A stretch of DNA of 64,000 bases from Candidatus Onthoplasma sp. (lineage in GTDB: Bacteria; Bacillota; Clostridia; Christensenellales; UBA1242): contig JBGVOQ010000023.1 of assembly GCA_045126575.1 (NCBI GenBank), positions 17,382 to 81,381 on the forward strand. The letters run 5' to 3'. The position numbers were made by a program, and so were the translations under genes. Numbering within the stretch: the first letter of the stretch is position 1; each line of letters opens with the position of its first letter. Under the pieces are notes generated by a model that saw nothing but the letters and a program-made list of their open reading frames with translations, searched no databases and was not told the origin of the DNA. Positions 26,275 to 54,024 of this stretch are shown one piece after another.

Positions 26275-26610
26275 ATTTATCCTCCATTTTTTTAATACGA
26301 CATTATTTTAGTAGCATTCGATACACTATTTATGTATCATTAAAATTTTTTGTATCTCAATTATAAAAATTTCATATTGATAAAATTGATGATAACTATA
26401 TGATTTATGTTGATTTTGGTGATAATTCAGATAAAAAAGTTGATTTTGATGACTATACTAAGGATATCGAAAACATACTAGAAAATAGGCATAAAGTCAA
26501 TTGTTATTATGTTGACAGGGATGAGCAACCCAATTGGTCTGAGTTGAACACATTATTCAATTCGGATTTTTATTTACTTTATTAATATTATTAAAAAAGC
26601 CATTATGATA

Positions 26611-27360: not shown

Positions 27361-27376
27361 CTATTATCACTCCCTT

Positions 27377-27913: not shown

Positions 27914-27917
27914 AACT

Positions 27918-29773: not shown

Positions 29774-29784
29774 AAACCCTCTTT

Positions 29785-30348: not shown

Positions 30349-31929
30349 TTATTCCTCCAATTGTTTGAGAATAAACTCTCCAACTTTTTCCATATTACTT
30401 TCATTTTGTTTTACTATATATGTCTGCTTATTAATTAGTTCATTAAATATATCGTTTTTAATATTTTTATTCCTAATAGAAACATTTATTTTGTAGAAAT
30501 CATTATCATAATTTTCCTGACTAGAATAATCTATAAAGTTATTAAATTTGTTACTGTCTAATATTTCCATCTTTTGATTGTTATTTGCAACAATGCAACA
30601 ATATTTGGAATTAGGAGTATATTGAGGAATTACAATTATTTTAAGTTCTGAACATATATTACCAATATTTACATTATTTAGACTTATTAAATCCTGTGGG
30701 CTCATATATATTCGGTCCTCTGCGACCCTTATATATCCCTCAGATTTTAATGAGTCGTATTTTTTATTCTTCTCTAATTCCAACCATTTTCTACTTCGCC
30801 TAATACCTATAAATTGAGGTGATGGCAAAAATTCAAGTCTATTATCGTTCTTGTCAACTATCAAAAAATCATTTGTAATAAAGTTAAATCCAAAATCTAA
30901 TAAATTTAACATTGTCACTGTTTTTCCACAATTAGCATTACCTACAATTATTACTGCATTGTTATCTTTTTCAACACATGAGCAATGCAATAATAAAGCT
31001 CCTTTTAATTGATACAATCTTATAAACAAATTAGTTATGAAATTTCTTGCTATTTTCTTCTTAGCTTCTTTATCATAACTATCTAAAAAAAATACTTTAC
31101 AAGAATTATTCTCGTTGTTCACACTAAATTGAGGATGATAATCCATATATGGTATATTTAAAGTAAATAATTGGTCAATATAATTTTCTGTTTGTTTGCA
31201 AAACTCTACCGAATAGTCATAATCCTCGCCGATAGGACTTATCGACACCATTCCCTTAAATCTCTTTTTAATTGTATCTATAAGATATGTTGGAGATTTT
31301 AGTCTTATTTTCAGTTCTCCATACTTTATTACAACTTGTTCGAAGTAATCATCTTCTGTTAAATTTATTTCATATTCTAAATCTTGTAATATTTGATTAA
31401 AAACATCTTCTCTATTTTTAGATGTATCATAATATTTCATATTGTTATTTTTACAAAATTGAATAATACGATTATTATCTTTATATAGATTATTAGCATA
31501 ATTCATTAAATCTTCATCGGACAATTTATATGTCCAGTCATATTCTTTATCGAATTTTCGCATTTTATCAAAATATTGTTTAGGAGAATCTAAATTTTCT
31601 GCCAAAATCACAATGATAAAATTGTCTTTATTAGAATATAAATCATTAATATCGTAATATGCACCCTCTACGCAATAAAAAATATCTCTTTTTTTGTTGT
31701 TAGATTTGTTTATTGTATTTATGTATTCCCATAAAAATGGTTTAAGGTTATTTACCACCACACCATCTGCTCGGTTATGATTAATGTCAAGTTGCGGTAT
31801 GGCCCTACTAAATGCCGATACAAAAGAGTCTAACGCTATAACATTATAATTAAACTTTTTATTTAATAATTTAGATAACGTCGTTTTTCCACTTCTACTA
31901 GAACCATATAATAATATATTCTTTTTCAT
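30349..31929 (-). CDS. Fusion protein: N-terminal P-loop kinase plus C-terminal HPr-kinase-like P-loop domain
   Basis: The first Walker A is GSSRSGKTT. The C-terminal LLLHCSCVEKDNNAVIIVGNANCGKTVTMLNLLDFGFNFITNDF matches the HprK C-terminal-domain pattern (H..v....g.a.li.G.sG.GKS...L...G..l..DD). Confidence 0.6.
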   Translation of the reverse strand: MKKNILLYGSSRSGKTTLSKLLNKKFNYNVIALDSFVSAFSRAIPQLDINHNRADGVVVNNLKPFLWEYINTINKSNNKKRDIFYCVEGAYYDINDLYSNKDNFIIVILAENLDSPKQYFDKMRKFDKEYDWTYKLSDEDLMNYANNLYKDNNRIIQFCKNNNMKYYDTSKNREDVFNQILQDLEYEINLTEDDYFEQVVIKYGELKIRLKSPTYLIDTIKKRFKGMVSISPIGEDYDYSVEFCKQTENYIDQLFTLNIPYMDYHPQFSVNNENNSCKVFFLDSYDKEAKKKIARNFITNLFIRLYQLKGALLLHCSCVEKDNNAVIIVGNANCGKTVTMLNLLDFGFNFITNDFLIVDKNDNRLEFLPSPQFIGIRRSRKWLELEKNKKYDSLKSEGYIRVAEDRIYMSPQDLISLNNVNIGNICSELKIIVIPQYTPNSKYCCIVANNNQKMEILDSNKFNNFIDYSSQENYDNDFYKINVSIRNKNIKNDIFNELINKQTYIVKQNESNMEKVGEFILKQLEE

Positions 31930-32795
31930 TAATATCTCCTTCTTCGAATAGGTAATAGTGGATGTGATTTTTTCTTTAACTCTCTATATATTTGCTGTAC
32001 ATTTTTATATGCACAACGATATAAAAAATCTTTTTCATATTTTTCAACACTATTCTCTGCCATATCCAAAAATTTCATAGCTATTTGATATCTTGAATTA
32101 TATCTTAATTTCAAATGTTCGGGTTCTTCACGTTGCATTATAGAGTCTTTATGAATTCGATAATTATAAAAAGGTTGTTCTATTAAACAAAAATTATCAA
32201 CCAATAACAACATTCTTGTCACCCAATCTTCATCTTCATGCAATATCCCTTCTTCAAAATATAGATTGTTATTTTCTATAATCTCTCTTTTTACAATAAA
32301 TCTCCAAACAGTAAATATTAAACGAACTCTATAAAAGTATTCCAATACTTGTGATTTTTGTTTATTGTTAATATATCTCTTATTTAAATTCTCGGTATAA
32401 CATCCATGTAAATTCTCATCTTCTTTAATAGTGTTAAACATGCCAACAAACGCTTCAATATTAGGTTTTCGTATAAGTTTTTTAGCAACTGTTTCTAATA
32501 TCCAATTTTCTATATAATCATCACTATCCAAAAATACTATATAGTCGCCAGTTGCCTTATTTAATCCTATATTTCTAGCAACAGAGACTCCTTGATGGTC
32601 AGATTGTATTAGATTTATTTTATTATTTTTAAAACTATTTATCATCTCAATTGTTTTATCTGATGAACCATCATCAACAATTATTATCTCATAATTTGTA
32701 TAACTTTGATTTAAAACACTTTGTATTGTTTTTTTAATAAACTTTTCAACATTATATGCTGGAATTATTATTGAAAATTTAATATTTTTTCTCAT
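31929..32795 (-). CDS. Family 2 glycosyltransferase
   Basis: FSIIIPAYNVEKFI...IIIVDDGSSD and LDSDD motifs. Confidence 0.8.
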   Translation of the reverse strand: MRKNIKFSIIIPAYNVEKFIKKTIQSVLNQSYTNYEIIIVDDGSSDKTIEMINSFKNNKINLIQSDHQGVSVARNIGLNKATGDYIVFLDSDDYIENWILETVAKKLIRKPNIEAFVGMFNTIKEDENLHGCYTENLNKRYINNKQKSQVLEYFYRVRLIFTVWRFIVKREIIENNNLYFEEGILHEDEDWVTRMLLLVDNFCLIEQPFYNYRIHKDSIMQREEPEHLKLRYNSRYQIAMKFLDMAENSVEKYEKDFLYRCAYKNVQQIYRELKKKSHPLLPIRRRRY

Positions 32796-32805
32796 ATAAT
32801 TCTCC

Positions 32806-33639
32806 TTATAATTGGTCTTTATATTCCGCTTGTTCCATTAATGTGTAATACATTTCCTTACACAATCTATAAGTTTTTCTTAATATATGTGTTTTTCTAT
32901 AATCGGTAAATTGTTCCGAGAATTTTAAAAGATTTTTAGCAATCTCTAATTTTGAAATATAATTAAAATTTGTTGGATTTGTTGTTATTGAATTCTTTCT
33001 TTTTCTATACGTAATAAATGGTATATCAATACATTGGAACGAATTACAATATAATAATATTTTAGTTATCCACTCTTCATCTTCGTGTATAACTTTTTCA
33101 TTGAAGAATATTTTACTGTCTTCTATAATCTTTCTCTTTATTACAAATCTCCAAACTGCCATAATAAATCTTAATTGATATAAATAATCTAAAACTTCTT
33201 CTTGTGACCTACCAATTATTTTAGTTTTATCAATATTTTCGCAAGATAATTTTTTTATCCCCTTTTCAGCGATACATTTAAACTCGCCTATTATACAATC
33301 TGTATTTGATTTTATTACATTACTTAAAGAACATAAAAGCCCTTTCTCCATCTTGTCATCACCATCAAGAAATACAATATATTCACCTTTTGCCCTTTTT
33401 AATGCAATATTTCTTGCATGCGAAACACCCTTGTGTTTTTTACAAATCAATTTTAACTTGCTATTAAATTCTTTTTTCCAAGATTTTATTTTTTTTAGTG
33501 TTAAATCTGTTGAACCATCATCAACACATATAATCTCAAAATCATTAAAATTTTGTGATTTTACAGATTTTAATGTATCATCTATATATTTCTCACAATT
33601 ATAACACGGAATAATTACTGAAAAAAGTTTATTATTCAT
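32806..33639 (-). CDS. Family 2 glycosyltransferase (paralog of 31929-32795)
   Basis: FSVIIPCYNCEKYI...ICVDDGSTD and LDGDD motifs. It shares the WRF(I/V)(V/I)KR and HEDE(D/E)W blocks with its neighbour. Confidence 0.8.
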   Translation of the reverse strand: MNNKLFSVIIPCYNCEKYIDDTLKSVKSQNFNDFEIICVDDGSTDLTLKKIKSWKKEFNSKLKLICKKHKGVSHARNIALKRAKGEYIVFLDGDDKMEKGLLCSLSNVIKSNTDCIIGEFKCIAEKGIKKLSCENIDKTKIIGRSQEEVLDYLYQLRFIMAVWRFVIKRKIIEDSKIFFNEKVIHEDEEWITKILLYCNSFQCIDIPFITYRKRKNSITTNPTNFNYISKLEIAKNLLKFSEQFTDYRKTHILRKTYRLCKEMYYTLMEQAEYKDQL

Positions 33640-34496
33640 TAATCCTCCTTTATATATTCAATAACATATTTTGCTAACTCTTCTTCATAATTTTTAAATG
33701 AGTGTTTTGCATTTGCTATTATCTTATATTTTAGATTTAAATTATAGTGTTGTAATCGTTTCATGGCTAGTTCTGCCGATAAATTTGAATAACTTAACCC
33801 TTGGTCATATTCTCCAATAATTGCAAAAATTGGTATATCTATTAATTTAAACATACCAAAATCACAATCTTCTGTTAAATAGGGAAGATTATTAATATCT
33901 TTACGTGAAAATAAGTCCTTATATGTTCTTCCACAAATTTCGCAATAACCAAACAATTTTTGTGTAAGAAGTTCGTCTCCTTTATTAGATATTATATTTT
34001 CTTCGGCTTCTGCCATCATATTATTATCCACTTGAACACTAATATCTTGTGGGCAAATTAAAATTAATTTTTTAATATTTGGATATTGTTTTACATTTAA
34101 TAAACTAACTAATCTATTACATGCCAAACTTGCACCTACTAAATATATTTTTTTGAAACCTTTATTAATAATATACTCAACCCATTCCATCATATCTTTA
34201 ATAGTTTCATCATAGTCTTCGTAAGCACCACCCCTTAATACAAGTTTAGTTTCTCCATCCGCAAGTTTTTGCTTTAATCCCTTAACCTTATAACTTGCTT
34301 GTGTATTTCCGAACAAGAAACTTAATCCACTATTAATAACTTCATCGGCAATGGCACAAAACATATTATCACAAGTCCCACCTAAACCAGCAAAACATAC
34401 AACACACGAATCTTTATTATTTTCATAATAATATCCTTTCAATTCAATACCATCTCTTTGCAATATTTTTATTTTATAATCATCTTTAATAAACAT
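33639..34496 (-). CDS. Alpha/beta-hydrolase-fold protein (Ser nucleophile variant GASLA)
   Basis: Its predicted catalytic triad: nucleophile elbow LVGASLA, a later acidic residue (GEYDQ) and a C-terminal His (NAKHSF). Confidence 0.55.
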   Translation of the reverse strand: MFIKDDYKIKILQRDGIELKGYYYENNKDSCVVCFAGLGGTCDNMFCAIADEVINSGLSFLFGNTQASYKVKGLKQKLADGETKLVLRGGAYEDYDETIKDMMEWVEYIINKGFKKIYLVGASLACNRLVSLLNVKQYPNIKKLILICPQDISVQVDNNMMAEAEENIISNKGDELLTQKLFGYCEICGRTYKDLFSRKDINNLPYLTEDCDFGMFKLIDIPIFAIIGEYDQGLSYSNLSAELAMKRLQHYNLNLKYKIIANAKHSFKNYEEELAKYVIEYIKED

Positions 34497-35391
34497 TATT
34501 TATCTCCTTTGTTCTTGAATTTATAAATTCTTCTATTATTTCATCCAACTCTTGTTCTTTCCCTTTAAACAGATGTTTTGCATTGTCAATTATATAAAAT
34601 TTACCATTCTTACAATTTCTTACCATACTATTAAAATATTTTAAAATAATCTCCTCAGTTTCATTTCTAATAGCATAATCCAATCTCCCCATAACAAACA
34701 AAATTCTAGCATCTATTAATTGTAAGTCTTTAAGTTTCTCTATATTGGTTTTATATGAAAGAGTATTAAATATATTATTAAGACTAACATCTAAATAAGT
34801 TATACTGCTTATGTCCATATAACCTAAAAACTTTTTGCTTAATATTTTGTTGGGACAGCCTTGTTTAACATTATCAATCGCTTCCTGCTCCAACCCTTCA
34901 TGAACTGAACTGGTACGAACTTCCACAAAATCTTGTGGTGCCAACAATATTAATTCTGAAACCATACTATTAGCCTTTTGATTATGTTGTAGATAATACG
35001 TCAACTTACTAGCCGAACCACATAATCCCACTGCTACTACATTTTTATATCCTTCATTGTTTAAAAATTTAAAAAAGCAGTCAAAATCAACAATACTTTT
35101 ATATAATCTAGAATTTGTTGCTCCAATATATTCTTTTTGAACTTCACCATTATTCAAATGCTTAACAGTCTCCATTTTATCGTAGCTATCCTTAAATTGA
35201 CCAAATAAAAATCCATACCCATTTTTTTGAGCAATGTCAGAAAGTAGCTCTCCAATATTCCCATATCCGCCACCGAAACCTGGGCAATACATTATTACAG
35301 TATCTGAGTTTTGAGCAGGCAGATATCTAGCAGTTAACTCTATATAATCGCCGTTTATTAATTTTATATCTTTTAAAGAATGCTTATCCAT
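34486..35391 (-). CDS. Alpha/beta-hydrolase-fold protein (paralog; Cys at the nucleophile position)
   Basis: It aligns with the neighbour, but the elbow reads VGLCGSA. The MGRLDYA and DNAKHLF positions are retained. Confidence 0.55.
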   Translation of the reverse strand: MDKHSLKDIKLINGDYIELTARYLPAQNSDTVIMYCPGFGGGYGNIGELLSDIAQKNGYGFLFGQFKDSYDKMETVKHLNNGEVQKEYIGATNSRLYKSIVDFDCFFKFLNNEGYKNVVAVGLCGSASKLTYYLQHNQKANSMVSELILLAPQDFVEVRTSSVHEGLEQEAIDNVKQGCPNKILSKKFLGYMDISSITYLDVSLNNIFNTLSYKTNIEKLKDLQLIDARILFVMGRLDYAIRNETEEIILKYFNSMVRNCKNGKFYIIDNAKHLFKGKEQELDEIIEEFINSRTKEINNVY

Positions 35392-35433
35392 AATCTCTAT
35401 TATTATAACATATAAATTTTAATAGTGCAAGTA

Positions 35434-35462
35434 TTGACAATATTTTTAATAAGTGCTACTAT
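35434..35462 (+). promoter_or_regulatory. Promoter-like element placed for a leaderless transcript
   Basis: TTGACA at 35434-35439, a 17-nt spacer and TACTAT at 35457-35462. The ATG at 35469 follows after 6 nt with no RBS. Confidence 0.45.
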
Positions 35463-35468
35463 ATAGTT

Positions 35469-36434
35469 ATGAAATTTATAAGTTTTATAATTCCAATATA
35501 TAATGGCGAAAAGTATATTGATAGATGCTTAAATTCCATATTCCATCAGTGTCGTGATAATGATATTGAGATTATATTAATTAATGATGCTTCGACAGAT
35601 AATACCTACAATATTTGCTGTCAATATGCCAATAGATATAATAATATAATCATATTAAACAATCCTGAAAATTGTGGGGTGTCATATTCTAGGAATATAG
35701 GAATTGAAAATGCTAGTGGAAAATATATATTCTTTTTAGATATAGATGATTTTTTAACAGAAAATAGTTTGAATATCATGCTAAAAGCAATACAAACAAA
35801 TAATGATTTAATTTGTTTTTCTATCTTTTCAAACAAAAAAAATAATCTACATAAATATAATCTTCCTTTACTAGAAAGTTTATCTCAAAATGATTTGTTT
35901 CAAAAAAATCTTTCAGTTTTGTTTGATGTCACAGTTTCCACCTGGATAAAAAATAAGTTGTATAAAACATCTATAATAAAACACAACCATATCAAATTTA
36001 ATACTAATATGAGCTATTCCGAGGATGTGATTTTCAATTTGTCGTTTTTCCCCTTTGCCATCACTTATTATTTTAAAGATTTTCCAATACTTGTTTATGA
36101 TAGAGATGTTGAAAACTCCTTGTCCAGACAATATGAACATAATTTAATTAGCCAGTTTTTTATACAAAGAAAATATTTTGATAAATTTTTTAATGATAAT
36201 AATATTCCAATAGACAAATATTATTATTTGGATTGTGTTGGACTATTGACATATTGTGTTTATAAGGTTATAAATAGTCAATCCAGCAAAGAAAATAAAA
36301 TTGATGAATTGAAAATTTTGTTAAAAAACAATCCTATTCATTTATTGCCTTATTTTAATCTTGATGATAAAGAAGAATTATCAATTTTTAACTTTATCAA
36401 TACACAAGATTTCAGTATTTTAATCAAGGAGTAA
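35469..36434 (+). CDS. Family 2 glycosyltransferase
   Basis: ISFIIPIYNGEKYI...IILINDASTDNT and LDIDD motifs. Confidence 0.8.
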   Translation: MKFISFIIPIYNGEKYIDRCLNSIFHQCRDNDIEIILINDASTDNTYNICCQYANRYNNIIILNNPENCGVSYSRNIGIENASGKYIFFLDIDDFLTENSLNIMLKAIQTNNDLICFSIFSNKKNNLHKYNLPLLESLSQNDLFQKNLSVLFDVTVSTWIKNKLYKTSIIKHNHIKFNTNMSYSEDVIFNLSFFPFAITYYFKDFPILVYDRDVENSLSRQYEHNLISQFFIQRKYFDKFFNDNNIPIDKYYYLDCVGLLTYCVYKVINSQSSKENKIDELKILLKNNPIHLLPYFNLDDKEELSIFNFINTQDFSILIKE

Positions 36435-37447: not shown

Positions 37448-37528
37448 ATGAACAATATTATTAATCCAAAAGTAATTCCTAAAGATAAAAATATAACTAC
37501 TTGCAAAAAATCGTGCGAGGTGCTATAA
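37448..37528 (+). CDS. Possible 26-aa leader ORF, translationally coupled to the next gene
   Basis: AAGGAGA RBS 6 nt upstream. It reads MNNIINPKVIPKDKNITTCKKSCEVL. Its TAA overlaps the ATG at 37528 (TAATG). It is below the ORF-track size cutoff. Confidence 0.3.
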   Translation: MNNIINPKVIPKDKNITTCKKSCEVL

Positions 37529-37821
37529 TGGGAATGTGTAAACCTAGTGGCGGAGTAAAACGTGTTGTTGGAAGAATTGGAGATTTAGAACGTGAAGGAA
37601 CTCCCAATTCAAGAGTAGATATGTATAATGAAAAAGGCATATTAATACAACAACGATGGTATGGTCCAGATGGACATGCAGTTTGGGACAGAGATTGGAA
37701 ACATGGCGGAGTTCATACATTCCCGCATGACCACTCTTGGGATTGGACAAATATAGAACACCCTGATAGACCTCCTTATGAGGGTCTAAATGGTGAAAAA
37801 ATAAATAAACACTATTATTAA
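37528..37821 (+). CDS. Small toxin-domain-like protein (97 aa)
   Basis: GTPNSRVDMYNEKGILIQQRWYGPDGHAVWDRDWKHGGVHTFPHDHSWDW resembles, from memory, C-terminal modules on phage head-morphogenesis and polymorphic-toxin proteins. The family assignment is unverified. Confidence 0.45.
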   Translation: MGMCKPSGGVKRVVGRIGDLEREGTPNSRVDMYNEKGILIQQRWYGPDGHAVWDRDWKHGGVHTFPHDHSWDWTNIEHPDRPPYEGLNGEKINKHYY

Positions 37822-37833
37822 AAGGAGACAATT

Positions 37834-38298
37834 ATGGGAAATAAAAATATATATGAGCCAATATTTGAAAAATCTTGTGCAGTATGTAGTAATAAGTATA
37901 TGGCAGATATCTATGGGCAAGGGAAATGCAGTCATTGTGGTTGGAGAAATGGTGATACGATTGAAGAAAATAAAAACAGTGTCGTATATCCCAATTTAAT
38001 TTCATTAAATAAAGCAAAACAACTTTATAAAGAAGGAAAATCATTTGCACCTAATTTAGATGAATTTATTGAAGCTCTATTTTGTTATAGCGAAGTTCAA
38101 TTTGAATATAATGGCATTTATTATGGTGTTGAAATAAATAGAAATAATGAAAAAATTAGTATAATAATGTATGATATCCCTTCAAATACAACTCAACAAT
38201 TTAAAACAAAAGAAGAATTTAAAAATAATGCAAAAATTGGAAATCAATATTTAAAAGATATATGGAACGAAACAACTGATAGATATTGGTTACAATAA
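37834..38298 (+). CDS. Zn-ribbon (CxxC...CxxC-W) protein with C-terminal alpha/beta domain
   Basis: CAVCSNKY...GKCSHCGW is followed by VYPNLISLNKAKQLYKEGK. Strong GGAGA RBS. It is a paralog of the C-terminal third of the next gene. Confidence 0.6.
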   Translation: MGNKNIYEPIFEKSCAVCSNKYMADIYGQGKCSHCGWRNGDTIEENKNSVVYPNLISLNKAKQLYKEGKSFAPNLDEFIEALFCYSEVQFEYNGIYYGVEINRNNEKISIIMYDIPSNTTQQFKTKEEFKNNAKIGNQYLKDIWNETTDRYWLQ

Positions 38299-38316
38299 AA
38301 ACATTTTGGAGAAAAT

Positions 38317-39336
38317 ATGCAAGATAAGGTAAATGAATTAAACAATTTATATATACCCATATTAAAAGAAATAGAAAATATAAGACAATTCCTAGGAAGC
38401 AAATGTATTGATCATTCTTTAGGATTTTACAATCGTAACTCAATAAAAATCAACGATAAAATAACAAGTGAAATTTATCCTATTCCAGTTATCTTTTGCA
38501 AACTAAACAATATTAATATTGATATTGCACTTGACCTTGTAAGCAACGAAAAATATATAGGTTTTATTAGATTTACTTTTAGTAAAGAAGATTTGCTGTG
38601 CTTCAATTTTAATCTTTTAAGCGATTTTTATTTTGAACTTTATTCATATAGTTATATTAACACTAATTTTGATTTTGAAAATATTGAACAAGAACTAATT
38701 AAAATACAAAAATCAAAAGAAACACAATTTAAAATAAAAATTAGCATTTCCAATACAAATCAAATTAAGGATATTATAAATAGATTGTTTAATAACCGAC
38801 CAAAATCTTTCTCAATGACATCTTTTACTTGTGATTGCAAAAATAATATATCTATTGAAAGTTATGATGGTTGTTGTCCAATCTGCGGAAAAGAAAGTCC
38901 TGGAAAAAGAATATTCCCAAAAACATGCTCAGTTTGTAACGAAAGTTTTTTAGTCGACCAATTTGGACAAGGAGAATGCCCTAACTGTAATTGGTATACT
39001 GATACATTAAGTGAAAAAAGTCCCAATGATGTTATATACCCTAATTTAGTCTCTCTAAATAAAGCAAAGCAATTATATAATGAAGGGAAACCATTTAGAC
39101 CCGATTTAAATGATTTCCTTGAAGGATTTGATATGTATGGTGAAATGCAATTTATTTACAAAAATATTGATTGTGAACTTTTTAGAAGTAATAATGAAGG
39201 CGGAATATCTTTTTACTATGAAGAAGGTAATGAGATTTTATTTAAAAATAAAGAAGATTTTATTCAGAATGCTAAAATTGGAAACGAATACGTAAGAGAT
39301 ATATGGCACTTAGTCGAAAACCCTAGTTATATGTAA
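38317..39336 (+). CDS. Unknown N-terminal domain fused to two Zn ribbons and the same C-terminal domain as 37834-38298
   Basis: It contains CPICG and CSVCNESF...GECPNCNW, then VIYPNLVSLNKAKQLYNEGK. It is about 50% identical by eye to the preceding protein over roughly 135 aa. Confidence 0.6.
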   Translation: MQDKVNELNNLYIPILKEIENIRQFLGSKCIDHSLGFYNRNSIKINDKITSEIYPIPVIFCKLNNINIDIALDLVSNEKYIGFIRFTFSKEDLLCFNFNLLSDFYFELYSYSYINTNFDFENIEQELIKIQKSKETQFKIKISISNTNQIKDIINRLFNNRPKSFSMTSFTCDCKNNISIESYDGCCPICGKESPGKRIFPKTCSVCNESFLVDQFGQGECPNCNWYTDTLSEKSPNDVIYPNLVSLNKAKQLYNEGKPFRPDLNDFLEGFDMYGEMQFIYKNIDCELFRSNNEGGISFYYEEGNEILFKNKEDFIQNAKIGNEYVRDIWHLVENPSYM

Positions 39337-39359
39337 AATTAATATTTTAAGGAGAATTT

Positions 39360-40097
39360 ATGAAAACAAGTGAACAATTAAGTTCGCTTTTTTCACATAT
39401 AGACAATGAGTCTAATTATGAAGAAGAAAAGCGAATAAAGAAACTAAAAATAACACGAAACGAATTTAAAACAGTAGGCAAATATGGTATGCCTCTCATT
39501 AAAAAACAAGATATTGATTTAGATAAAGTAAATTTATGGAATTACACTAAAACTAAAAATAATGATGCTGAACATAAAGATAAAACTATACATTTTTTTA
39601 CTTATGATTGGCACTTTGATAATGTTTATGAAAAGCCAGAAGTGGCGTTAGAGAAATTAGACCAATATTATGCCCTACTCACACCAGAATTTAGCACATA
39701 TAACGATATGCCACTAGCAAGGCAAATAGATAGCGTATTTAAAAGTAGATGGTGTGGAGCATACTGGCAAAAGCAAGGTTTTATCGTAATACCAACAATC
39801 TTTTGGAGTTCTGATGATAGTTTTGAATTTTGTTTTGATGGTATTGAACAAGGCTCAGTAGTTGCAATATCAACTTATATGCGAGAAAGTTATAAAGAAC
39901 AATTTATGGCGGGATATAATAAGATGTTAGAAATAATCAAACCTTCAGCAATTATATGTTATGGCACCCCTTTTAAAGAAATGAAAGGCAATATAAAAGC
40001 AGTTGACCCATTTAATAGAACTGAGTTAATTAAAAAGATTGGACTAGCGGAGTTTACAAAAAAATATCTCGCTGGCGAGTTGTATCCTGAAATTTAG
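39360..40097 (+). CDS. DUF4417-like protein
   Basis: IHFFTYDWHFDNVYEKPE...LLTPEFSTYNDMP...RWCGAYWQKQGFIVIPTIFW...FCFDGIEQGSVVAIST matches my recollection of the DUF4417 pattern found on phages and plasmids. Confidence 0.6.
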   Translation: MKTSEQLSSLFSHIDNESNYEEEKRIKKLKITRNEFKTVGKYGMPLIKKQDIDLDKVNLWNYTKTKNNDAEHKDKTIHFFTYDWHFDNVYEKPEVALEKLDQYYALLTPEFSTYNDMPLARQIDSVFKSRWCGAYWQKQGFIVIPTIFWSSDDSFEFCFDGIEQGSVVAISTYMRESYKEQFMAGYNKMLEIIKPSAIICYGTPFKEMKGNIKAVDPFNRTELIKKIGLAEFTKKYLAGELYPEI

Positions 40098-40156
40098 GAG
40101 GAATAATATTATATTTTTAACTCTTACGAGTTAATTGCATTTATAAAGGAGAAATT

Positions 40157-40966
40157 ATGAAAAATTATAAATTAACTATTGATTTACTTCCTAAAGGTGC
40201 TTGGGGAAATGATTTTAGCAAAACACTTTCCAAAAAAGATTGGGACATACTTAGAAATAAATGTTATGAACGAGCAAATCATAAATGTGCAATTTGTGGA
40301 TATGCTAGTGATGAACTTGACGCACACGAAGTTTGGAATTTTAATGTAGAAAATAAAACTCAAACATTGGTTGATATTCTTGCCCTTTGTAGTAGGTGTC
40401 ATGGTGTAAAACATATAAGAAATTCATATAGATTGGGTTATGGCGAAGATGCCAAAACTCATTTTATGAAAGTTAATAACGCTAGCGAACTTGACTTTAT
40501 TGCCCACCTAACCGAAGCGGAAATGAAATACGAAGAACAAAACAAAGTTTATAGATGGAATATAGTTGCCGACCTTAGTAAATTTGGCAGTAAAGATATT
40601 GAATTTAAACAAAGTTATATCCCTATGATTGCAAATCCTTATGAAAATATTGACTTTAACACAGTAAACTATGCTAACACTAAAAATCTTTTTATAATAT
40701 CTAAAGCAGAAAACACCACTCTAATTGGAACACCAAAAGTAACTGAGATTAATGTTGACAACTATCAAGGAATAATAACTATAAAATCATTATTCACAAA
40801 CAAAATTGAATGGTTTTTAGACGGGACTAAAATTAAAACTAAATACAATCTAGCAGGATTATTTAAAACTGAATTTTCAGTTAAAAACTTAACAGGCAAA
40901 CAATTATACTTTAAACTAACAAATTCAAATGGCGAATTGATTTCTAAACCTTTTGACTTATATTAG
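40157..40966 (+). CDS. HNH-endonuclease-like Zn-finger protein with extra C-terminal beta-rich domain
   Basis: CAICGY...DAHEVWNF...LCSRCHGVKH is a CxxC/CxxCH HNH-type arrangement. Strong RBS. Confidence 0.6.
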   Translation: MKNYKLTIDLLPKGAWGNDFSKTLSKKDWDILRNKCYERANHKCAICGYASDELDAHEVWNFNVENKTQTLVDILALCSRCHGVKHIRNSYRLGYGEDAKTHFMKVNNASELDFIAHLTEAEMKYEEQNKVYRWNIVADLSKFGSKDIEFKQSYIPMIANPYENIDFNTVNYANTKNLFIISKAENTTLIGTPKVTEINVDNYQGIITIKSLFTNKIEWFLDGTKIKTKYNLAGLFKTEFSVKNLTGKQLYFKLTNSNGELISKPFDLY

Positions 40967-40999
40967 AGTTCTATTTACTTTGCAAATGCTCAACCAAAC

Positions 41000-41047
41000 A
41001 AAAAATCAGCATATAAAGTGAAATTTATTTTATATGCTGATTTTTTA
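41000..41047. terminator. Bidirectional rho-independent terminator
   Basis: 12-bp stem ATCAGCATATAA (41005-41016) pairs with TTATATGCTGAT (41030-41041), flanked by an A-run and a T-run. Confidence 0.6.
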
Positions 41048-42346
41048 TACCCTATAACTATTGAATGTGTCTATTTCATTATTATCGAACATTATGCCAA
41101 TAGTTTCGGCTGACTTTAATATTGTGTTTAATTTAACATTATCTATTGAATTCCCTCTTAGTGACACGGCTGTAAATGAATTGGAATATGCTACATTAGA
41201 GTTTAGTGCACAACTATATACTGTTTTACATATTGGCAAATCAATTTCAGTTTCCAAACCCATAACAGTCTCGGCATCATCTACAATAACCGCCACCTTG
41301 TTACCTAGTTCCACTAAACGCTTAGCATAGTTTGCTCCAAGCAATATTATATTTTGCTGATGTTTTGGTTTAGCATTTATTGGAGTGCAAAATTTAATAA
41401 CCTTATAACTATTATCAATATATGGGACTGCTGAATATTTAGGATTTAAGTATACAATATAGTCAAACATATCTTCCAACTCATTAACAATTTGAGGCAA
41501 GATTTTTTGTTTTTGACAAGTTTGGTTTAAATATAGGAACATATTGTCACCCTTATATAAATCAAACTTATTTATAACCGCTTGCATAAATTCGCCCGCA
41601 GCATGCAAACTTTCCGTTTTGGTTTGTTTTAAGTTATTAAACCATGGGCGATTGTTATCCCAATTAGCACATGAAATCTTGTTTATGGCAAATAATGAAG
41701 TAAGCACCATACACCCTTTATCTTCCTTGCACGTACAAACCAATTCATCACCATTGCGCAATCTATATTTTTGCACATAACACTGCGGAACATACACTAT
41801 TGATAGTTCTGAGTTGCAATCACAACTACGTATAAAACTAAACTCCTCCATCGTGACTTGCAAATACCCTTTAAAAGTTTTAATAACCTTACTGTATTCT
41901 GCGCCATTACTATTTGGTTCAGCTAAAATGCAATTAGCAAATATATCGCCACCACTATAAGACACCATCTCGCTATCATCAATGCTATTAATAAATTTTT
42001 GACCAACAAACTTAGATAAGTCCACGGTTTTGTGATTATCGCTATCAAGTGGCTTATAGTTGTATATGCCTAAGTCAGCGCCTGTTGCACGTCCCTTAAT
42101 AGCACCCTCAACCATTAATGAATATAAATCTCCCTTATCAACATATTCCACAATATCCACAAGGCCACTAATATTGTTAGTGTCAATATTTTTTATTATA
42201 TCAATATCTCTATCCGTAAGCTTGGTTTTAAATGAGGTGTCGCCTATTGGAAACATGTAAAAACTCAACCTAATATAATTAGGAACAGCAAGTTTATATT
42301 TTTTTAACCTTTTTAACTTACAAATTTTTAACATATACATATCCAA
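41045..42346 (-). CDS. Rho-like protein with degenerate ATPase motifs and a novel N-terminal region
   Basis: The central region aligns with the Rho RNA-binding OB fold: GYLQVTMEEFSFIRS...VYVPQCYVQKYRLRNGDELVC against G.LE....GFGFLRS...IYVS.SQIRRF.LRTGD. The C-terminal part aligns with the RecA-like domain (ANYAKRLVELGNKVAVIVDD against EKAKRLVEHKKDVIILLDS). Walker A is replaced by NQTCQKQK and Walker B by VYLNPKYS. The true start may be M31, at 42256. Confidence 0.6.
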   Translation of the reverse strand: MDMYMLKICKLKRLKKYKLAVPNYIRLSFYMFPIGDTSFKTKLTDRDIDIIKNIDTNNISGLVDIVEYVDKGDLYSLMVEGAIKGRATGADLGIYNYKPLDSDNHKTVDLSKFVGQKFINSIDDSEMVSYSGGDIFANCILAEPNSNGAEYSKVIKTFKGYLQVTMEEFSFIRSCDCNSELSIVYVPQCYVQKYRLRNGDELVCTCKEDKGCMVLTSLFAINKISCANWDNNRPWFNNLKQTKTESLHAAGEFMQAVINKFDLYKGDNMFLYLNQTCQKQKILPQIVNELEDMFDYIVYLNPKYSAVPYIDNSYKVIKFCTPINAKPKHQQNIILLGANYAKRLVELGNKVAVIVDDAETVMGLETEIDLPICKTVYSCALNSNVAYSNSFTAVSLRGNSIDNVKLNTILKSAETIGIMFDNNEIDTFNSYRV

Positions 42347-49975: not shown

Positions 49976-50692
49976 ATGCAACAAATGGCTTTTCAACTAT
50001 TAAGAGAAAAAGGTCGTTTTAATTTTAAAGATTTATTTTCAATTTGTTTAGGTAAAGTATTTTCCAACAAAATTGAATTAGATGAATATATTGGACATTA
50101 TAGCAGATGGGATACTGATGTAACCAAAGGAGAATTATTATGTGATAATAAAAAATTTAATGTTCAATATATCGGAACATCATCAAAACAAGATAATATG
50201 TGGTTTTCAGCAGAACTAGAAAAACAAATTCCTGATAAATATGTAAATTTAACAATACAAGTTCGGAACTTATTGCAATCTTTAAATCTAACCAATCTAG
50301 CACAACCTAAAATTCCGCTTAACAATATCATTACAGATGAAAAGTTGGCAATAATATATACAGCTTTCTTAACTGATGAAAAAACAACATATTATATTGG
50401 CAATTCAGGAGATATTAAAATATTTATGTTTGTTAAGGATTTTGATGGCGAAAATGTAATTTCAACACTAACTCAACCAATCGGTTCACATAAATTCATA
50501 CCTAGAGTACAAGAAATGTTATCGACTTATGATGTGGACCATAAACTTTGCATCAAATCATTCCTAATTCACAATCGTTGTAGATATCAAGAATTACCTA
50601 ATAAGATTATTGGAACTTTCGGTGATAAATCCATAAGTTTTGAATTTGATAACAATGGATATCTAACTAGTATGTCTGGTGTGCTTAACTAA
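49976..50692 (+). CDS. Hypothetical protein (possibly DUF6882-like)
   Basis: Strong AAGGAGG RBS. WDTDVTKGELLCDNKKFNVQYIGTSSKQDNMWF recalls DUF6882. Memory only. Confidence 0.5.
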   Translation: MQQMAFQLLREKGRFNFKDLFSICLGKVFSNKIELDEYIGHYSRWDTDVTKGELLCDNKKFNVQYIGTSSKQDNMWFSAELEKQIPDKYVNLTIQVRNLLQSLNLTNLAQPKIPLNNIITDEKLAIIYTAFLTDEKTTYYIGNSGDIKIFMFVKDFDGENVISTLTQPIGSHKFIPRVQEMLSTYDVDHKLCIKSFLIHNRCRYQELPNKIIGTFGDKSISFEFDNNGYLTSMSGVLN

Positions 50693-50701
50693 AAAAAATA
50701 A

Positions 50702-50735
50702 ATTCCCACTATGTAAGTGGGGATTTTTATTTTTT
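50702..50735 (+). terminator. Rho-independent terminator
   Basis: Stem ATTCCCACT pairs with AGTGGGGAT (one G-U pair), the loop is ATGTA, and TTTTATTTTTT follows. Confidence 0.6.
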
Positions 50736-50755
50736 AATTAAATTTGGCACTAAAA

Positions 50756-50810
50756 CGTGTGCTTGTCTTGATACAAGTGGCGTCGCTTCGCTCCGCCAGA
50801 CAAGCACACG
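50756..50810 (+). promoter_or_regulatory. Candidate double-strand origin hairpin with pC194/phiX174-type nick motif
   Basis: Perfect 13-bp stem CGTGTGCTTGTCT (50756-50768) pairs with AGACAAGCACACG (50798-50810). CTTGATA lies at 50767-50773, at the stem-loop junction. The GC-rich loop forms a secondary stem (GGCGTCGC/GCTCCGCC). Confidence 0.5.
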
Positions 50811-50833
50811 CAAAAAACTTAACCAAATAAAAT

Positions 50834-50900
50834 AAAACGGAACAAAATGGGGTTCGCACGCAAGCTTTCTGCGAATCCCCATTTTTTATTGTTCCGTTTT
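50834..50900 (+). other. Long imperfect hairpin (candidate single-strand origin or terminator)
   Basis: AAAACGGAACAA-AATGGGG-TTCGCA ... TGCGAA-TCCCCAT-(TTTTTA)-TTGTTCCGTTTT. About 25 paired positions. Confidence 0.4.
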
Positions 50901-50937
50901 ACATATTTTCAATGGTTCATAAAAAACATGGACTTTT

Positions 50938-51104
50938 TTTCATTTAGACCACGTACTTTTATCATTCTCGTGGTTTTTATATATAGAGGTATATAAAATT
51001 TTATATCTCCACAAAACAATCTAAATGTAAAAATTTTTAACAAATTTTCATTTAGGGGGTCCCTTTTTGCCATTCTCGTGCCTTATATATGAAGGGCATA
51101 TAAA
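50938..51104 (+). repeat. Two roughly 60-bp imperfect direct repeats, 108 bp apart (iteron-like)
   Basis: Both units read TTTCATTTAG-15 nt-CATTCTCGTG-..TTATATAT..(A/G)GG.ATATAAA. Unit A spans 50938-50998 and unit B spans 51046-51104. Confidence 0.6.
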
Positions 51105-51414
51105 TGATACATTGATGATGTATTAAGAAACAAAGTTCCTATATAAAGGATACACAAATGTTGTGGTAATACTAAAACATTTATGATATTTATTAAATAT
51201 CTCTCAAAACAAACAATCGCTTTGGGTTTTGTTTGGGAAAACTTTGGAAATTGTACAGGTAAAGTTCCTTCTATTTCTCGATAATTTGTGATATTAATAA
51301 AGCATATCTCAAACTCTTGTCAATAACTTGGCAACAAACTCTCAATAAAATGGCAAGTAATGTCATGGTTTTTGAAATATGACCTGTAATACAATTTAAA
51401 CAAGGAGGTTAACA

Positions 51415-51549
51415 ATGAAAGTTAAATTTAAAAATCAACATAATACTGATGTTTTAGATAAAGATTTTTATCTATTGCTTTTTAACAACATTGTTAATCT
51501 TAAAAAGGAGGCGGACAATGAATTATGCTCAAACAAAAGTGTACAATGA
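51415..51549 (+). CDS. Possible 44-aa ORF overlapping the Rep start
   Basis: AAGGAGG RBS 6 nt upstream. It reads MKVKFKNQHNTDVLDKDFYLLLFNNIVNLKKEADNELCSNKSVQ. It is below the ORF-track cutoff, and no homology is recognised. Confidence 0.3.
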   Translation: MKVKFKNQHNTDVLDKDFYLLLFNNIVNLKKEADNELCSNKSVQ

Positions 51550-52387
51550 TGGCAGTCATTTTATAGGCATACCTAAAACTACTCAGCCATGGAAAAAGAA
51601 AAAGTCTAAATCTAACAATCAATCAAAAGAAAAAGAGATATTTGAACAAACATACAAAGAAAGCAATAACAAAACAAAGAAAGAAAAGATTGAAAATATA
51701 AGTAAAGTATTAGAACCACATTTTAAAGATAAGAAAGAACTCGATGAATTTATAAAAGAAAATATGGATAGGAAGAAAAGGAATTTAATAGTAAGAAGAA
51801 ATAGATTATCTAAAAAGATTAATTTACATAAATGGCATTACTTTTGCACTTTTACCTATGATGACAAATTGCATACAGAAGAAAATTTTAGAAAATCACT
51901 ATCTAACACATTAAAGCATTTATCAAATCGTAAAGGTTGGAGATATATAGGTGTATGGGAGCGAAGTCCTACAAATAACAGGTTACACTTTCACGGATTA
52001 TTCTATACCCCTATTATGATTGGTGAGTTTGAAGAAATTAAAGATTATTCAACCAAGAAACACGAAATGCAGATTGCTAATCAAAATACTTACTTTTTAA
52101 AAAGATTTGGAAGAAATGATTTTAAGTATATTGTAGGTAGCCAACATATAGACGAGTCTAAAAACTATCTTATGAAATACCTTGAAAAATCTGGTGAAAG
52201 AATTGTATATAGCAGAGGCCTATATACTTACTTTGTATCAGATATATTGGAAGATGACATAGTTTGCACCATAGGACAAGAAGATAGAAAGATACTTTTA
52301 TTCGATAACTTTAATTGCTTAATTGATGGCGAAGTGATTGGACAAGTCAGTCAAGAAATAATAGATAAAATGCCAAAAACAAATTAA
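51518..52387 (+). CDS. Rolling-circle replication initiator (HUH endonuclease superfamily Rep)
   Basis: The start MNYAQTK has an AAGGAGG RBS. Motif I is HYFCTFTYD, motif II (HUH) is RLHFHGLFY, and motif III (catalytic Tyr) is NYLMKYLEK. Confidence 0.75.
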   Translation: MNYAQTKVYNDGSHFIGIPKTTQPWKKKKSKSNNQSKEKEIFEQTYKESNNKTKKEKIENISKVLEPHFKDKKELDEFIKENMDRKKRNLIVRRNRLSKKINLHKWHYFCTFTYDDKLHTEENFRKSLSNTLKHLSNRKGWRYIGVWERSPTNNRLHFHGLFYTPIMIGEFEEIKDYSTKKHEMQIANQNTYFLKRFGRNDFKYIVGSQHIDESKNYLMKYLEKSGERIVYSRGLYTYFVSDILEDDIVCTIGQEDRKILLFDNFNCLIDGEVIGQVSQEIIDKMPKTN

Positions 52388-52563: not shown

Positions 52564-54024
52564 ATGAAAACAGCAGTTATATATGCTAGATATAGCAGTG
52601 ATAACCAAACTGAACAAAGTATTGAAGGGCAATTAAGAGTTTGTCAAGATTATGCACAAAGAAATGACATAGTTATTCTTAACACATACATTGACCGAGC
52701 AATGACAGGTACTAATGATAATAGACCAGATTTTCAACAAATGATTAAAGATAGTTATAACAAGGAATGGAATTATGTGTTGGTATATAAACTTGATAGA
52801 TTTAGTAGAGATAGATACGAAACATCTATCCACAAACACACATTACAACAAAATGGTGTAAAACTTATTTCAGCTATGGAAAATATACCAGATACGCCAG
52901 AAGGAATTATTCTAGAAGCATTAATTGAAGGAATGAATCAATATTATTCAGCAGAACTTGCACAAAAGATTAAAAGAGGCATGAAAGAAACTCGCCTAAA
53001 AGGACTTTACCAAGGCGGTGGCTTACCTTATGGTTATAAAGTTCAAGATAGAAAAATTATGCTTAATGAATTAGAATATAGAAATGTTCAATTCATGTTT
53101 AATCAATATGCAAGAGGTTTTAGAGTAAAACACATTATTGAAACTTTAACAAGTCAAGGTGTTTTAAACAAAGGTAAACCATTTGAAGAAAATATTGTAT
53201 ATCGCATGTTAAGAAATGAAAAATATACAGGTGTATACAATCACAATGGGGAGATTATAGAAAACATGTACCCTCCTATCATTTCAAAAGAACTTTATGA
53301 AAAAGCACAAATAAGCATAAAAAACAATAGATATGGTAAAAGCAGTTTAACGACAAATTATTTACTAAAAGGTAAAATAAGATGTGGTTATTGTGGCAAT
53401 ACTATAAGTTCTGATTGTGGCACACTACGAAATGGAACATTGGTCCACTATTATAAATGTCGAGGAAAGAAACGGCATAAAATCAATTGTCCTAATAAAA
53501 GTATTAGAAAGGAACTTTTAGAGGAAATTATTATAACCAAAATAATCGAAGAATTACAAAAACCTAAAAATCTAAATATTGTTGTTGACAATGTTTTACA
53601 ACTACAAGATAATTGCATTGAAAACAATACTAAACTTAAATATTTAGAAAAAGAAATAAAGCACAAGCAATCTCAACTTAATAATATTATAAAAGCTATT
53701 GAATGCGGTGTTGTCAGCAAAACAACAGCATTAAGAGTTAAAGAACTTGAAACCCAAATTGAAGAACTTGATAAAGAAATCTTAATAGAACACAATACAC
53801 AATCATTTAGAATGTCAAGAGAAGAAATTGAAAGGTTTTATGCAGACGCTTTAAAACGAGAACCAATGTTATTGATAAACTATTTGATAAAAGAAATTAA
53901 ACTATATAACGATAAGCTTGAAATACAACTTAATAATCCAATAAAAAAGAGTCCAAATAACGATTTGGATTCTTCTTTTTTATTTAAAACTAAATTGTTT
54001 AAAGACATTGAGATATATGTATAG
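52564..54024 (+). CDS. Large serine recombinase
   Basis: N-terminal resolvase catalytic domain (AVIYARYSSDNQ...SIEGQ...DRFSRD), the recombinase domain, a zinc ribbon (CGYCGN...YYKCRGKK...CPN) and a C-terminal coiled coil. Size of 486 aa. Confidence 0.9.
   Translation: MKTAVIYARYSSDNQTEQSIEGQLRVCQDYAQRNDIVILNTYIDRAMTGTNDNRPDFQQMIKDSYNKEWNYVLVYKLDRFSRDRYETSIHKHTLQQNGVKLISAMENIPDTPEGIILEALIEGMNQYYSAELAQKIKRGMKETRLKGLYQGGGLPYGYKVQDRKIMLNELEYRNVQFMFNQYARGFRVKHIIETLTSQGVLNKGKPFEENIVYRMLRNEKYTGVYNHNGEIIENMYPPIISKELYEKAQISIKNNRYGKSSLTTNYLLKGKIRCGYCGNTISSDCGTLRNGTLVHYYKCRGKKRHKINCPNKSIRKELLEEIIITKIIEELQKPKNLNIVVDNVLQLQDNCIENNTKLKYLEKEIKHKQSQLNNIIKAIECGVVSKTTALRVKELETQIEELDKEILIEHNTQSFRMSREEIERFYADALKREPMLLINYLIKEIKLYNDKLEIQLNNPIKKSPNNDLDSSFLFKTKLFKDIEIYV

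Follow-up and report, generated by a model that had tools for sequence, protein, structure and literature searches.

Pseudo-Rho, a conserved family of Rho derivatives with a degenerate ATPase core in reduced-genome gut Clostridia

Rho, a homohexamer with RNA-dependent ATPase, helicase and termination activity, is the textbook example of a ring-shaped RNA motor, and few protein segments of bacteria are as highly conserved as its ATPase core. The RecA-like fold also has non-catalytic paralogues, such as the alpha subunit of F1, the B subunit of V1 and the Rad51-paralogue Shu complex, which serve as scaffolds or as nucleic-acid-binding partners. Canonical Rho is represented in this work by the NCBIfam models TIGR00767 and NF006886 and by the PDB entries 1PV4, 3ICE and 3L0O. 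According to the main text of a 2024 survey of complete RefSeq genomes (PMC11347177), "Rho-like" sequences, defined as having the Rho RNA-binding domain, with or without the N-terminal domain, and no detectable Rho ATPase domain, occur in 421 species, and species with only such sequences are counted as having no functional Rho; the sequences themselves are left to its supplement. The same text describes a short Rho ("Group B", NCBIfam NF041509) that retains the catalytic and bicyclomycin-pocket residues. Here we describe a Rho relative, called pseudo-Rho, which we consider most probably (probability of about 0.6) to be a vertically inherited, fast-evolving and motor-less descendant of Rho that binds RNA independently of ATP.

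A stand-alone gene derived from Rho

The window (the whole stretch of 64,000 nucleotides from Candidatus Onthoplasma sp. that was analysed) carries the pseudo-Rho gene on its reverse strand at 41045..42334, and all features given below lie on that strand. The ORF was called mechanically at 41045..42346 (433 codons, TTG start at 42346); since the homologues begin at the position equivalent to the ATG at 42334, the protein is taken to have 429 aa (stop codon at 41045-41047). At least 47 full-length homologues (at least 410 aa each) have this start region in common, as well as a C-terminus of S-Y-R and one further residue, and these sequence clusters define what we call family a. Directly 3' of the stop codon lies a bidirectional-looking intrinsic terminator (40996..41046) made of A6, an 18-bp stem and T6, with a minimum free energy of -18.4 kcal/mol (z = -7.3 against shuffles), and a similar hairpin with a T-run follows the gene in most other loci examined. 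Among the loci compared, neighbours differ from one locus to the next, and they offer neither a shared operon partner nor a pathway hint from conserved genes. The pseudo-Rho gene stands alone and has a terminator of its own.

Pseudo-Rho is also a true Rho derivative and not a chance resemblance. The earlier note had proposed a Rho homologue with lost catalytic motifs and had asked for a profile comparison with the Rho families; this comparison gave a significant match, and the alignment upheld the motif loss. Pfam Rho_RNA_bind (PF07497) scores 35.9 bits on residues 159-224 (gathering score 27), phmmer against PDB Rho chains places residues 159-359 on residues 59-272 of T. maritima Rho (E 3.6e-4), and hhalign of the family a profile with that of canonical Rho yields a probability of 99.2% (E 1.2e-19), with residues 146-384 aligned onto E. 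coli Rho 43-312. For the AlphaFold2 monomer model (pLDDT 73, pTM 0.76), 50 of the 50 best Foldseek matches in the PDB are Rho chains (best match: E 2.5e-15, probability 1.00, TM ~0.55). The Pfam search gave no match to the ATPase domain PF00006, and the NCBIfam Rho models stay below their cut-offs: 35.4 bits against 315 for TIGR00767, 30.0 against 509.45 for NF006886, and 20.3 against 628 for NF041509 (paralog_Rho2, the short Rho), the catalytic residues being absent.

All the family a sequences found come from uncultured gut Clostridia with reduced genomes of only ~750-950 genes, in the family UBA1242 (Ca. Onthoplasma and relatives). Full-length homologues are 32-77% identical, with 35 invariant and 28 nearly invariant columns. 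Between the same genome pairs, pseudo-Rho is 32-48% identical where neighbour proteins are 58-87% identical, a rate that would also fit a conflict-related or a relaxed role. By its pattern of conservation, family a is a real gene, conserved under selection and fast-evolving. Loss of catalytic motifs and fast divergence would also be expected if the ORF were a pseudogene in decay or had been misannotated; yet the ORFs are intact (415-487 aa) in at least 47 clusters, the invariant columns and the terminator are conserved, and the fold is confidently modelled except at the N-terminus. The pattern of conservation already refutes this reading, to which we leave next to no weight. The host genomes are reported to be compact and without accumulation of pseudogenes (PMC12306168). 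The suspicion that no such family had been described holds for Pfam, NCBIfam, PADLOC, the main text of PMC11347177 and a 2025 review on Rho, none of which contains a description of it.

RNA-binding fold, ATPase core and N-terminal region

The OB fold of the Rho primary RNA-binding site, recognised earlier at about residues 160-250, was recovered at aa 150-220 (41675..41887) by PF07497 and by hhalign onto E. coli Rho 43-122. Its signatures are T-F-K-G-Y-L-E-V, F-S-(I/F)-I-R, V-Y-(I/V)-P and L-R-N-G-D-E. The equivalents of E. coli F62, R66, Y80 and L91-R92-x-G94-D95 are retained in 34 to 47 of the 47 family a sequences, and those of D78, E108 and Y110 are lost. By residue correspondence, the aromatic and arginine core of the predicted RNA-binding cleft is retained, while the cleft as a whole is only partly conserved; because of the three lost positions, RNA binding by family a and its base preference are putative.

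The degenerate RecA-like core follows at aa 245-428 (41051..41602). Alignments to Rho and the order of strands and helices in the AlphaFold2 model agree with the earlier view that the C-terminal part follows the Rho core. The P-loop is reduced to a remnant of the same length as A-P-P-K-A-G-K-T, Y-L-N-Q-T-C-Q-K-Q-K (aa 268-277, 41504..41533), without Gly and without Ser or Thr, and the family consensus is N-K-x-x-Q-K. Indeed, the replacement of PPKAGKT by N-Q-T-C-Q-K-Q holds across family a: G-K-[ST] of the Walker A motif (G/A-x4-G-K-[ST]) is present at the P-loop position in 0 of 47 members, the position of E. coli G183 is Q in 30 of 47, and that of T185 is variable. K275, the equivalent of E. 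coli K184, is kept in 44 of 47 sequences, and Y268, the first residue of the remnant, in all 47.

In place of M-V-L-L-I-D-E-R-P-E-E stands the strand Y-I-V-Y-L-N-P-K-Y-S-A (aa 292-302, 41429..41461), with the consensus V-I-Y-I-N-P-Q-Y, which has no conserved acidic residue. The earlier note had taken the change from LLIDERPEEV to VYLNPKYSAV as loss of both Walker B and the catalytic stretch. The catalytic Glu211 and the Arg212 valve are indeed gone, but the Walker B strand V-A-V-I-V-D-D is retained further on (aa 347-353, 41276..41296): D352, which corresponds to D265 in the E. coli ILLDS, is invariant (47/47) and D353 nearly so (41/47), so that "Walker B obliterated" was imprecise wording. 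The survey of homologues proposed at that time found the P-loop and Glu/Arg losses to be common to family a.

The Q-loop, which in Rho comes after the Walker B strand, is deleted, its columns (E. coli 278-290) being gapped in every family a member, and the R-loop region, which forms the secondary (translocation) RNA site of Rho together with the Q-loop, shows no conservation in the alignment. The protein ends one residue after S-Y-R (aa 426-428, 41051..41059; S426 47/47, Y427 44/47, R428 47/47), and it lacks the C-terminal helices of E. coli Rho, ~53 residues beyond R366. S-Y-R may correspond to the arginine finger of Rho (S363-G-T-R366); counted from the conserved I-D anchor in the alignment to P-A-I-D-Y-N-R-S-G-T-R, its register is shifted by one residue. 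The deleted Q-loop and the missing helices strengthen the earlier proposal that the protein would be unable to translocate.

The residues kept around the former ATP pocket, namely the P-loop Lys (44/47), the Walker B Asps and the terminal Arg (47/47), are unexpected for a wholly idle pocket, and ligand binding is therefore possible. Pseudo-Rho might then still bind nucleotide through a non-canonical P-loop, as a sensor or a very slow NTPase, its motor being modified and not dead. The unchanged length of the P-loop is in line with this, as are the pocket residues, Y268 included; the remnant has, however, neither a Gly for the phosphate-binding turn nor a Ser or Thr for Mg2+, the catalytic Glu and the Arg valve are absent, and PF00006 gives no match. 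We regard such a role as improbable, and with the Q-loop deleted there would be no way to couple any hydrolysis to the movement of RNA.

The family-specific N-terminal region (aa 1-145, 41900..42334) stands in place of the Rho helix bundle and is mostly predicted to be disordered, with pLDDT below 50 at residues 1-34, 49-63 and 98-149 of the AlphaFold2 model. It had been called unlike the Rho bundle, and the searches agree: Pfam and PDB gave no match for the first 145-150 aa, Pfam gave no match to Rho_N (PF07498), and hhalign comparisons with the corresponding regions of canonical Rho and two related groups (b and c, see below) stayed under 1% probability. The best candidate relation, which pairs N-I-Y-x-L-M with S-I-F-x-L-R of Rho_N, reached only E 0.075 and 0.8% and was taken as unsupported. 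The sole confidently modelled part of the region is a conserved motif (aa 66-93, 42056..42139), G-N-I-Y-x-L-M-x-E-G-V-L-x-G-x-x-T-G-A-D-L-G-I-Y-N-Y, with a pLDDT of ~90 at residues 71-90 and with L73, E76, T84, G85, D87 and Y91 each present in 44 to 46 of the 47 sequences. It is probably a lineage-specific contact, either with a partner or for self-docking.

Neighbouring genes, sister groups and canonical Rho

A cassette of DUF4417, HNH and CPCC genes lies just past the pseudo-Rho gene, in convergent orientation, in the window and in three other loci (L002, L003 and L018). The idea that pseudo-Rho is part of this adjacent mobile cassette was not supported by the survey of neighbours, which are variable: the cassette is absent from six of the ten distinct loci examined, and where two genomes share cassette proteins at 72-93% identity, their pseudo-Rhos share ~40%, which indicates separate histories. 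A functional tie to the cassette, or a part in anti-phage defence or another conflict system, would be compatible with the convergent neighbours, with the fast evolution and with a weak Pfam match to the S1/CSD domain of TOTE conflict systems (E 0.19). The identities and the six loci without cassette speak against it; besides, the PADLOC defence-system search gave nothing convincing (only LmuA, E 0.006, 14 bits), the phage-protein search with pseudo-Rho was equally unconvincing, and the viral-contig search found no relatives. We hold this reading to be very unlikely, and its cassette version is largely refuted. Pseudo-Rho is neither mobile nor viral and is most probably inherited vertically.

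Two sister groups without a P-loop were found in the same and in related uncultured Clostridia. Group b (28 clusters of ~390 aa, e.g. P0056), from uncultured low-GC organisms, has the Rho_N domain and the same S-Y-R end, and aligns to family a with E 3.5e-48 (hhalign). Group c (180 clusters of ~355 aa, e.g. P0087 of Ca. Onthoplasma faecipullorum) aligns with E 5.7e-34 and occurs in Ca. Onthoplasma. Both resemble family a in having I-Y-(L/I)-N for L-L-I-D-E-R, a deleted Q-loop and a retained V-D-D, and differ from it by a clear Rho_N bundle followed by a K-x-K-Q-G-R-P-P-K linker. Group c, which is fast-evolving like family a, has at the P-loop position Y-G-x-N-N-x-N-T, where the Thr is kept and the Lys lost; unlike family a, it lacks the last strands and has a more degenerate OB cleft. 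Together the three families total ~250 clusters at 90% identity, and family a is one part of a wider, uncharacterised group of motor-less Rho proteins of small-genome gut bacteria.

The genomic position of group c is fixed, the order being ArsP_2, a 146-aa gene, an antitoxin, PemK and then the pseudo-Rho gene; in this window the usual site after ArsP_2 is without group c. A giant gene downstream of group c is unrelated to the giant ORF found at the start of the window. The window and the homologue loci, which span less than 10% of any one genome, were searched by tblastn for canonical rho, with the E. coli protein and two AT-rich canonical Rhos as queries; only pseudo-Rho genes came back. P0330, a canonical Rho with an N-terminus like groups b and c, lies in a genome with sporulation genes, and nothing was found to link it to UBA1242.

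These relatives bear on a reading in which pseudo-Rho is a non-catalytic subunit or a dominant-negative poison of a Rho ring, the partner being canonical Rho or group c. As a subunit it could be a structural or regulatory partner in a mixed hexamer, by analogy with the alpha and B subunits of the F1 and V1 ATPases. The RecA-like scaffold, the retained Walker B Asp and the invariant terminal Arg would suit this role, the arginine finger of Rho acting in trans; so would the complementary P-loop residues (Lys in family a, Thr in group c) and the occurrence of both families in organisms named Ca. Onthoplasma. However, no canonical rho is present in the window and homologue loci (under 10% of any genome), group c is missing from its usual site here, and the two group c assemblies identified by accession (GCA_045578345.1 and GCA_965647245.1) differ from the two so identified for family a (GCA_045633705.1 and GCA_054293605.1). 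Moreover, the abundant group c species are sampled in 20-60 copies and every family a cluster in at most four, so that at least those species do not have family a. We consider a ring partner rather unlikely.

The whole Rho lineage of UBA1242 may have been converted into motor-less proteins of three architectures (a, b and c) with no canonical Rho left, an idea that we find conceivable but doubtful. In that case, family a would be a factor that derives from Rho and binds RNA without ATP. It might still modulate termination by binding RNA polymerase or the nascent RNA, without translocation, or else assemble with group c into mixed rings, like the alternating catalytic and non-catalytic subunits of F1 and V1.

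Proposed role and comparison with known systems

We suggest that pseudo-Rho, as a motor-less descendant of Rho, would bind single-stranded, probably pyrimidine-containing RNA independently of ATP. ATP hydrolysis and RNA threading would be impossible with the P-loop, the Glu, the Arg valve, the Q-loop and the C-terminal helices all lost. The protein is possibly oligomeric, and an oligomer would likely be built on the RecA-like scaffold. The fate of the transcript (termination, antitermination, protection or chaperoning) would be changed by occupancy and not by translocation. That genomes of ~750-950 genes retain family a implies that the Rho fold can have a useful job that is independent of the motor. 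As a natural separation-of-function variant of Rho, family a bears on the debate on how far Rho acts on RNA polymerase in an allosteric or occupancy-based way and not by translocation.

Compared with canonical Rho, its best structural match, pseudo-Rho has the OB-fold primary RNA-binding domain and the RecA-like domain in the same order, and keeps the signatures F-x-F/I-x-R, V-Y-V/I-P, L-R-x-G-D, R-P-x-F, A-K-R-L-x-E and V-x-V-D-D. Unlike Rho, which is highly conserved, it evolves fast, and it lacks the N-terminal bundle, Walker A, Glu211, Arg212, the Q-loop, a conserved R-loop and the last ~53 residues. The likeness to F1 alpha, V1 B and the Shu complex is an analogy, a RecA-like fold minus catalytic motifs, and implies no specific kinship. 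Pseudo-Rho shares with the short Rho of Group B its kinship to Rho, the absence of the N-terminal bundle and a possible coexistence with a second protein of the Rho type; unlike Group B, it has lost the catalytic and bicyclomycin-pocket residues. With PF07497 detected and PF00006 absent, pseudo-Rho falls under the operational definition of "Rho-like" given in the main text of PMC11347177. The data of that survey are RefSeq genome annotations, whereas the relatives of family a come from metagenome assemblies and MAGs, and its main text does not contain the degenerate but retained RecA core, the N-terminal region or the S-Y-R end. Species scored as lacking a functional Rho may carry diverged Rho derivatives.

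Rho ancestry and motif status of family a

The open reading frame at 41045..42346(-), which the earlier note had described as a Rho homologue with obliterated Walker motifs, is present in the window. Since its closest relatives start at the ATG at position 42334, the product (pseudo-Rho) has 429 aa, and residues are numbered here from this ATG, i.e. minus four relative to the earlier note. Pseudo-Rho and its full-length relatives (47 aligned proteins) constitute family a; the 41 database relatives of pseudo-Rho are nearly all of 415-487 aa.

The Rho ancestry was borne out by domain, sequence, profile and structure comparisons. Pfam Rho_RNA_bind matches pseudo-Rho with 35.9 bits (gathering score 27), and phmmer aligns residues 159-359 (numbering of the 433-residue ORF) with Thermotoga maritima Rho (PDB 3L0O; E 3.6e-4). 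The profile alignment that had been proposed as a check, between the 47-member family and canonical Rho (hhalign), gave a probability of 99.2% and an E-value of 1.2e-19, residues 146-384 corresponding to Escherichia coli Rho 43-312 (reference sequence checked to be identical to PDB 1PV4 chain A). The AlphaFold2 model (pLDDT 73, pTM 0.76) is confident from residue ~150 on, and its 50 best Foldseek matches in the PDB are all Rho chains (top E 2.5e-15, probability 1.0, TM ~0.55). Pseudo-Rho fails all the curated Rho models: its scores are 30-35 bits where 315-509 are required, and 20 bits where the short Rho paralogue model requires 628.

As the earlier note had proposed, the N-terminus is unlike the Rho helix bundle: nothing in Pfam or the PDB matches residues 1-145, and these do not align with the Rho_N of canonical Rho or of two sister groups, b and c (hhalign probability <1%). 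This region is mostly modelled with pLDDT <50, except residues ~70-90 (pLDDT ~90), within which the motif L-x2-E-G-x6-T-G-x-D-L-G-I-Y-x-Y is conserved in 42-46 of the 47 proteins; our guess is that it serves as a docking or partner-binding peptide.

Considering the positions of E. coli Rho across the 47 members, the RNA-binding OB cleft is partly maintained: F62 (F in 34, Y in 5), R66 (R in 43) and Y80 (Y in 36, F in 6) are kept, F64 is hydrophobic (I in 23, F in 14), and L91-R92-x-G94-D95 is retained in 45-47, while D78, E108 and Y110 are lost. The changes noticed at the P-loop and at the LLIDERPEEV stretch are real. The P-loop A-P-P-K-A-G-K-T is replaced, at equal length, by L-N-Q-T-C-Q-K-Q in the window protein (family consensus L-N-K-x-x-Q-K), a remnant devoid of Gly and of conserved Ser/Thr that retains the Lys184 equivalent (K275, 44/47); none of the family a members has G-K-[ST] at this position, so that the motif loss extends to the homologues. 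M-V-L-L-I-D-E-R-P became I-V-Y-L-N-P-K-Y-S in the window protein, with loss of Glu211 and Arg212. Walker B itself was not obliterated as had been stated, its Asp265 being retained as D352 in all 47 proteins. The Q-loop (278-290) is deleted throughout the family, a helix preceding P-A-I-D is deleted as well, and the R-loop shows no conservation. Finally, the proteins stop one residue after an S-Y-R (S in 47, Y in 44 and R in 47 of the 47) that is in register with, or one residue off, S-G-T-R366 of Rho, whose last ~53 residues are missing.

Because of these combined losses, and judging from the established roles of the motifs concerned, ATP-driven translocation by family a is very unlikely. The best-supported reading is that of a motor-dead Rho derivative whose Rho-type OB cleft and scaffold would still be in use and which would act by binding rather than by translocating. 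The earlier interpretation was largely right, apart from the Walker B loss and from the membership of an adjacent cassette discussed below.

Sister groups and possible stepwise degeneration

An exhaustive profile search (E up to 1e-3) returned 469 matches, among them family a and the two sister groups, which are also P-loop-less. Group b (~390 aa, 28 clusters; E 3.5e-48 against family a by hhalign) combines a clear Rho_N bundle with the degenerate core and S-Y-R end of family a. Group c (~355 aa, 180 clusters; E 5.7e-34), to which a Ca. Onthoplasma faecipullorum protein belongs, keeps the Rho_N bundle intact and carries I-Y-I-N-x-S and V-D-D; in place of the P-loop it reads Y-G-x-N-N-x-N-T, with Thr retained and Lys lost. 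Its genes (8001-9056 in locus L013, 10001-11077 in L015-L017, 3001-4077 in L019 and 3001-4086 in L020) lie in a fixed order: Gate, ArsP_2, a 146-aa gene, antitoxin, PemK, then pseudo-Rho(c). The frame of at least 3337 codons that occupies window 1-~10050(-) and runs off the window start was compared with the giant genes found 3' of group c in other genomes and rejected as unrelated.

Intermediate Rho-like forms occur in uncultured Clostridia outside the window (P0316, P0318, P0320 and P0321). Their P-loop is gone, and P0316 and P0318 retain the catalytic L-I-N-E-R-P-E-D stretch, S-x-T-R-K and the C-terminal helices. These forms, together with an N-terminal signature (G-I-F-E-L-R ... G-R-P-P-K) also present in canonical Clostridial Rho proteins, suggest that the P-loop-less groups arose by stepwise motor decay from a Clostridial Rho. 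Families a and c evolve far faster than their neighbour genes: identity is 32-48% in family a against 58-87% for flanking chromosomal genes of the same genome pairs, and 37-40% in group c against 77-83% for the adjacent PemK (58-83% for the PemK toxin/antitoxin pair and ArsP_2).

Genomic setting and distribution

A hairpin (A6, 18-bp stem, T6; -18.4 kcal/mol, z = -7.3) directly follows the pseudo-Rho stop codon, and a similar hairpin and T-run is found 3' of the gene at most other pseudo-Rho loci. As no neighbour gene is common to all the loci compared, pseudo-Rho looks like a stand-alone gene. It had been suggested to belong to the adjacent cassette (37501-40966(+)), whose products are a 106-aa protein, two cysteine-rich proteins of the CPCC type (154 and 339 aa), a DUF4417 protein whose PHROG match carries a nuclease annotation, and an HNH endonuclease-like protein. 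Indeed, the cassette lies just past the pseudo-Rho terminator in the window and in three other loci (L002 11652-15974, L003 11935-14871 and L018 1571-2492). However, identity reaches 72-93% for the main cassette proteins in genome comparisons where it is only ~40% for pseudo-Rho, and the cassette is missing at 6 of the 10 distinct pseudo-Rho loci. The cassette must therefore have been mobile recently, landing repeatedly beside the pseudo-Rho gene without forming a functional unit with it, and its constant position suggests a preferred landing site. Neither close relatives of the DUF4417 protein nor family a relatives were found among viral contigs.

No canonical Rho was found in the window or in the examined loci, which cover a small fraction of each genome. 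The ArsP_2 orthologue at the window end (63113-64000(-)) has a 177-aa gene after it, then pgk, gpmI, secG, rnr, smpB and finally ssrA. The PemK/pseudo-Rho(c) block of Ca. Onthoplasma faecipullorum is missing at this locus (58971-63026), so group c is not at its usual position in the window genome; no tpi orthologue was detected between pgk and gpmI. Frequent group c species are sampled in 20-60 copies and each family a cluster in at most four; at least the common group c species thus appear to be without family a.

Two other regions were observed in the window. A large serine recombinase (Resolvase, Recombinase and Zn_ribbon_recom domains; 52564-54024(+)) is separated by ~1.4 kb from the tmRNA gene (55453-55794(-)) and has several + strand ORFs (49976-52387) beside it; the region probably represents an element that inserted at ssrA. 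Positions 26000-36000 (GC 0.24-0.28 versus 0.30-0.36 elsewhere), with co-directional (-) genes ending beside a family-2 glycosyltransferase, may represent a surface-polysaccharide island.

When each GTDB species was scanned by pattern in one genome, seven family a loci were located, all in animal-gut MAGs labelled Ca. Onthoplasma sp. (Christensenellales, GTDB family UBA1242) or "Clostridia bacterium". One belongs to MAG KA0021_177 (PMC12306168). UBA1242 MAGs are of 0.76-0.92 Mb with 738-930 genes, and the whole genome set of that study has a coding density of 81-94% and no pseudogene accumulation (PMC12306168).

Comparison with described Rho-like sequences

In the text available to us, a 2025 review mentions neither "Rho-like" nor "second Rho", and none of the consulted passages concerns an ATPase-dead Rho relative (PMC12360218). 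Neither that text nor the main text of a 2024 survey of Rho diversity (PMC11347177) describes family a, the anatomy of its proteins or the sister groups. The general phenomenon has already been glimpsed: as far as its main text goes, the survey reports from 421 species, and treats in its supplement, "Rho-like" sequences composed of the RNA-binding domain alone or of the N-terminal domain together with the RNA-binding one, and it scores species with only such sequences as being without functional Rho (PMC11347177).
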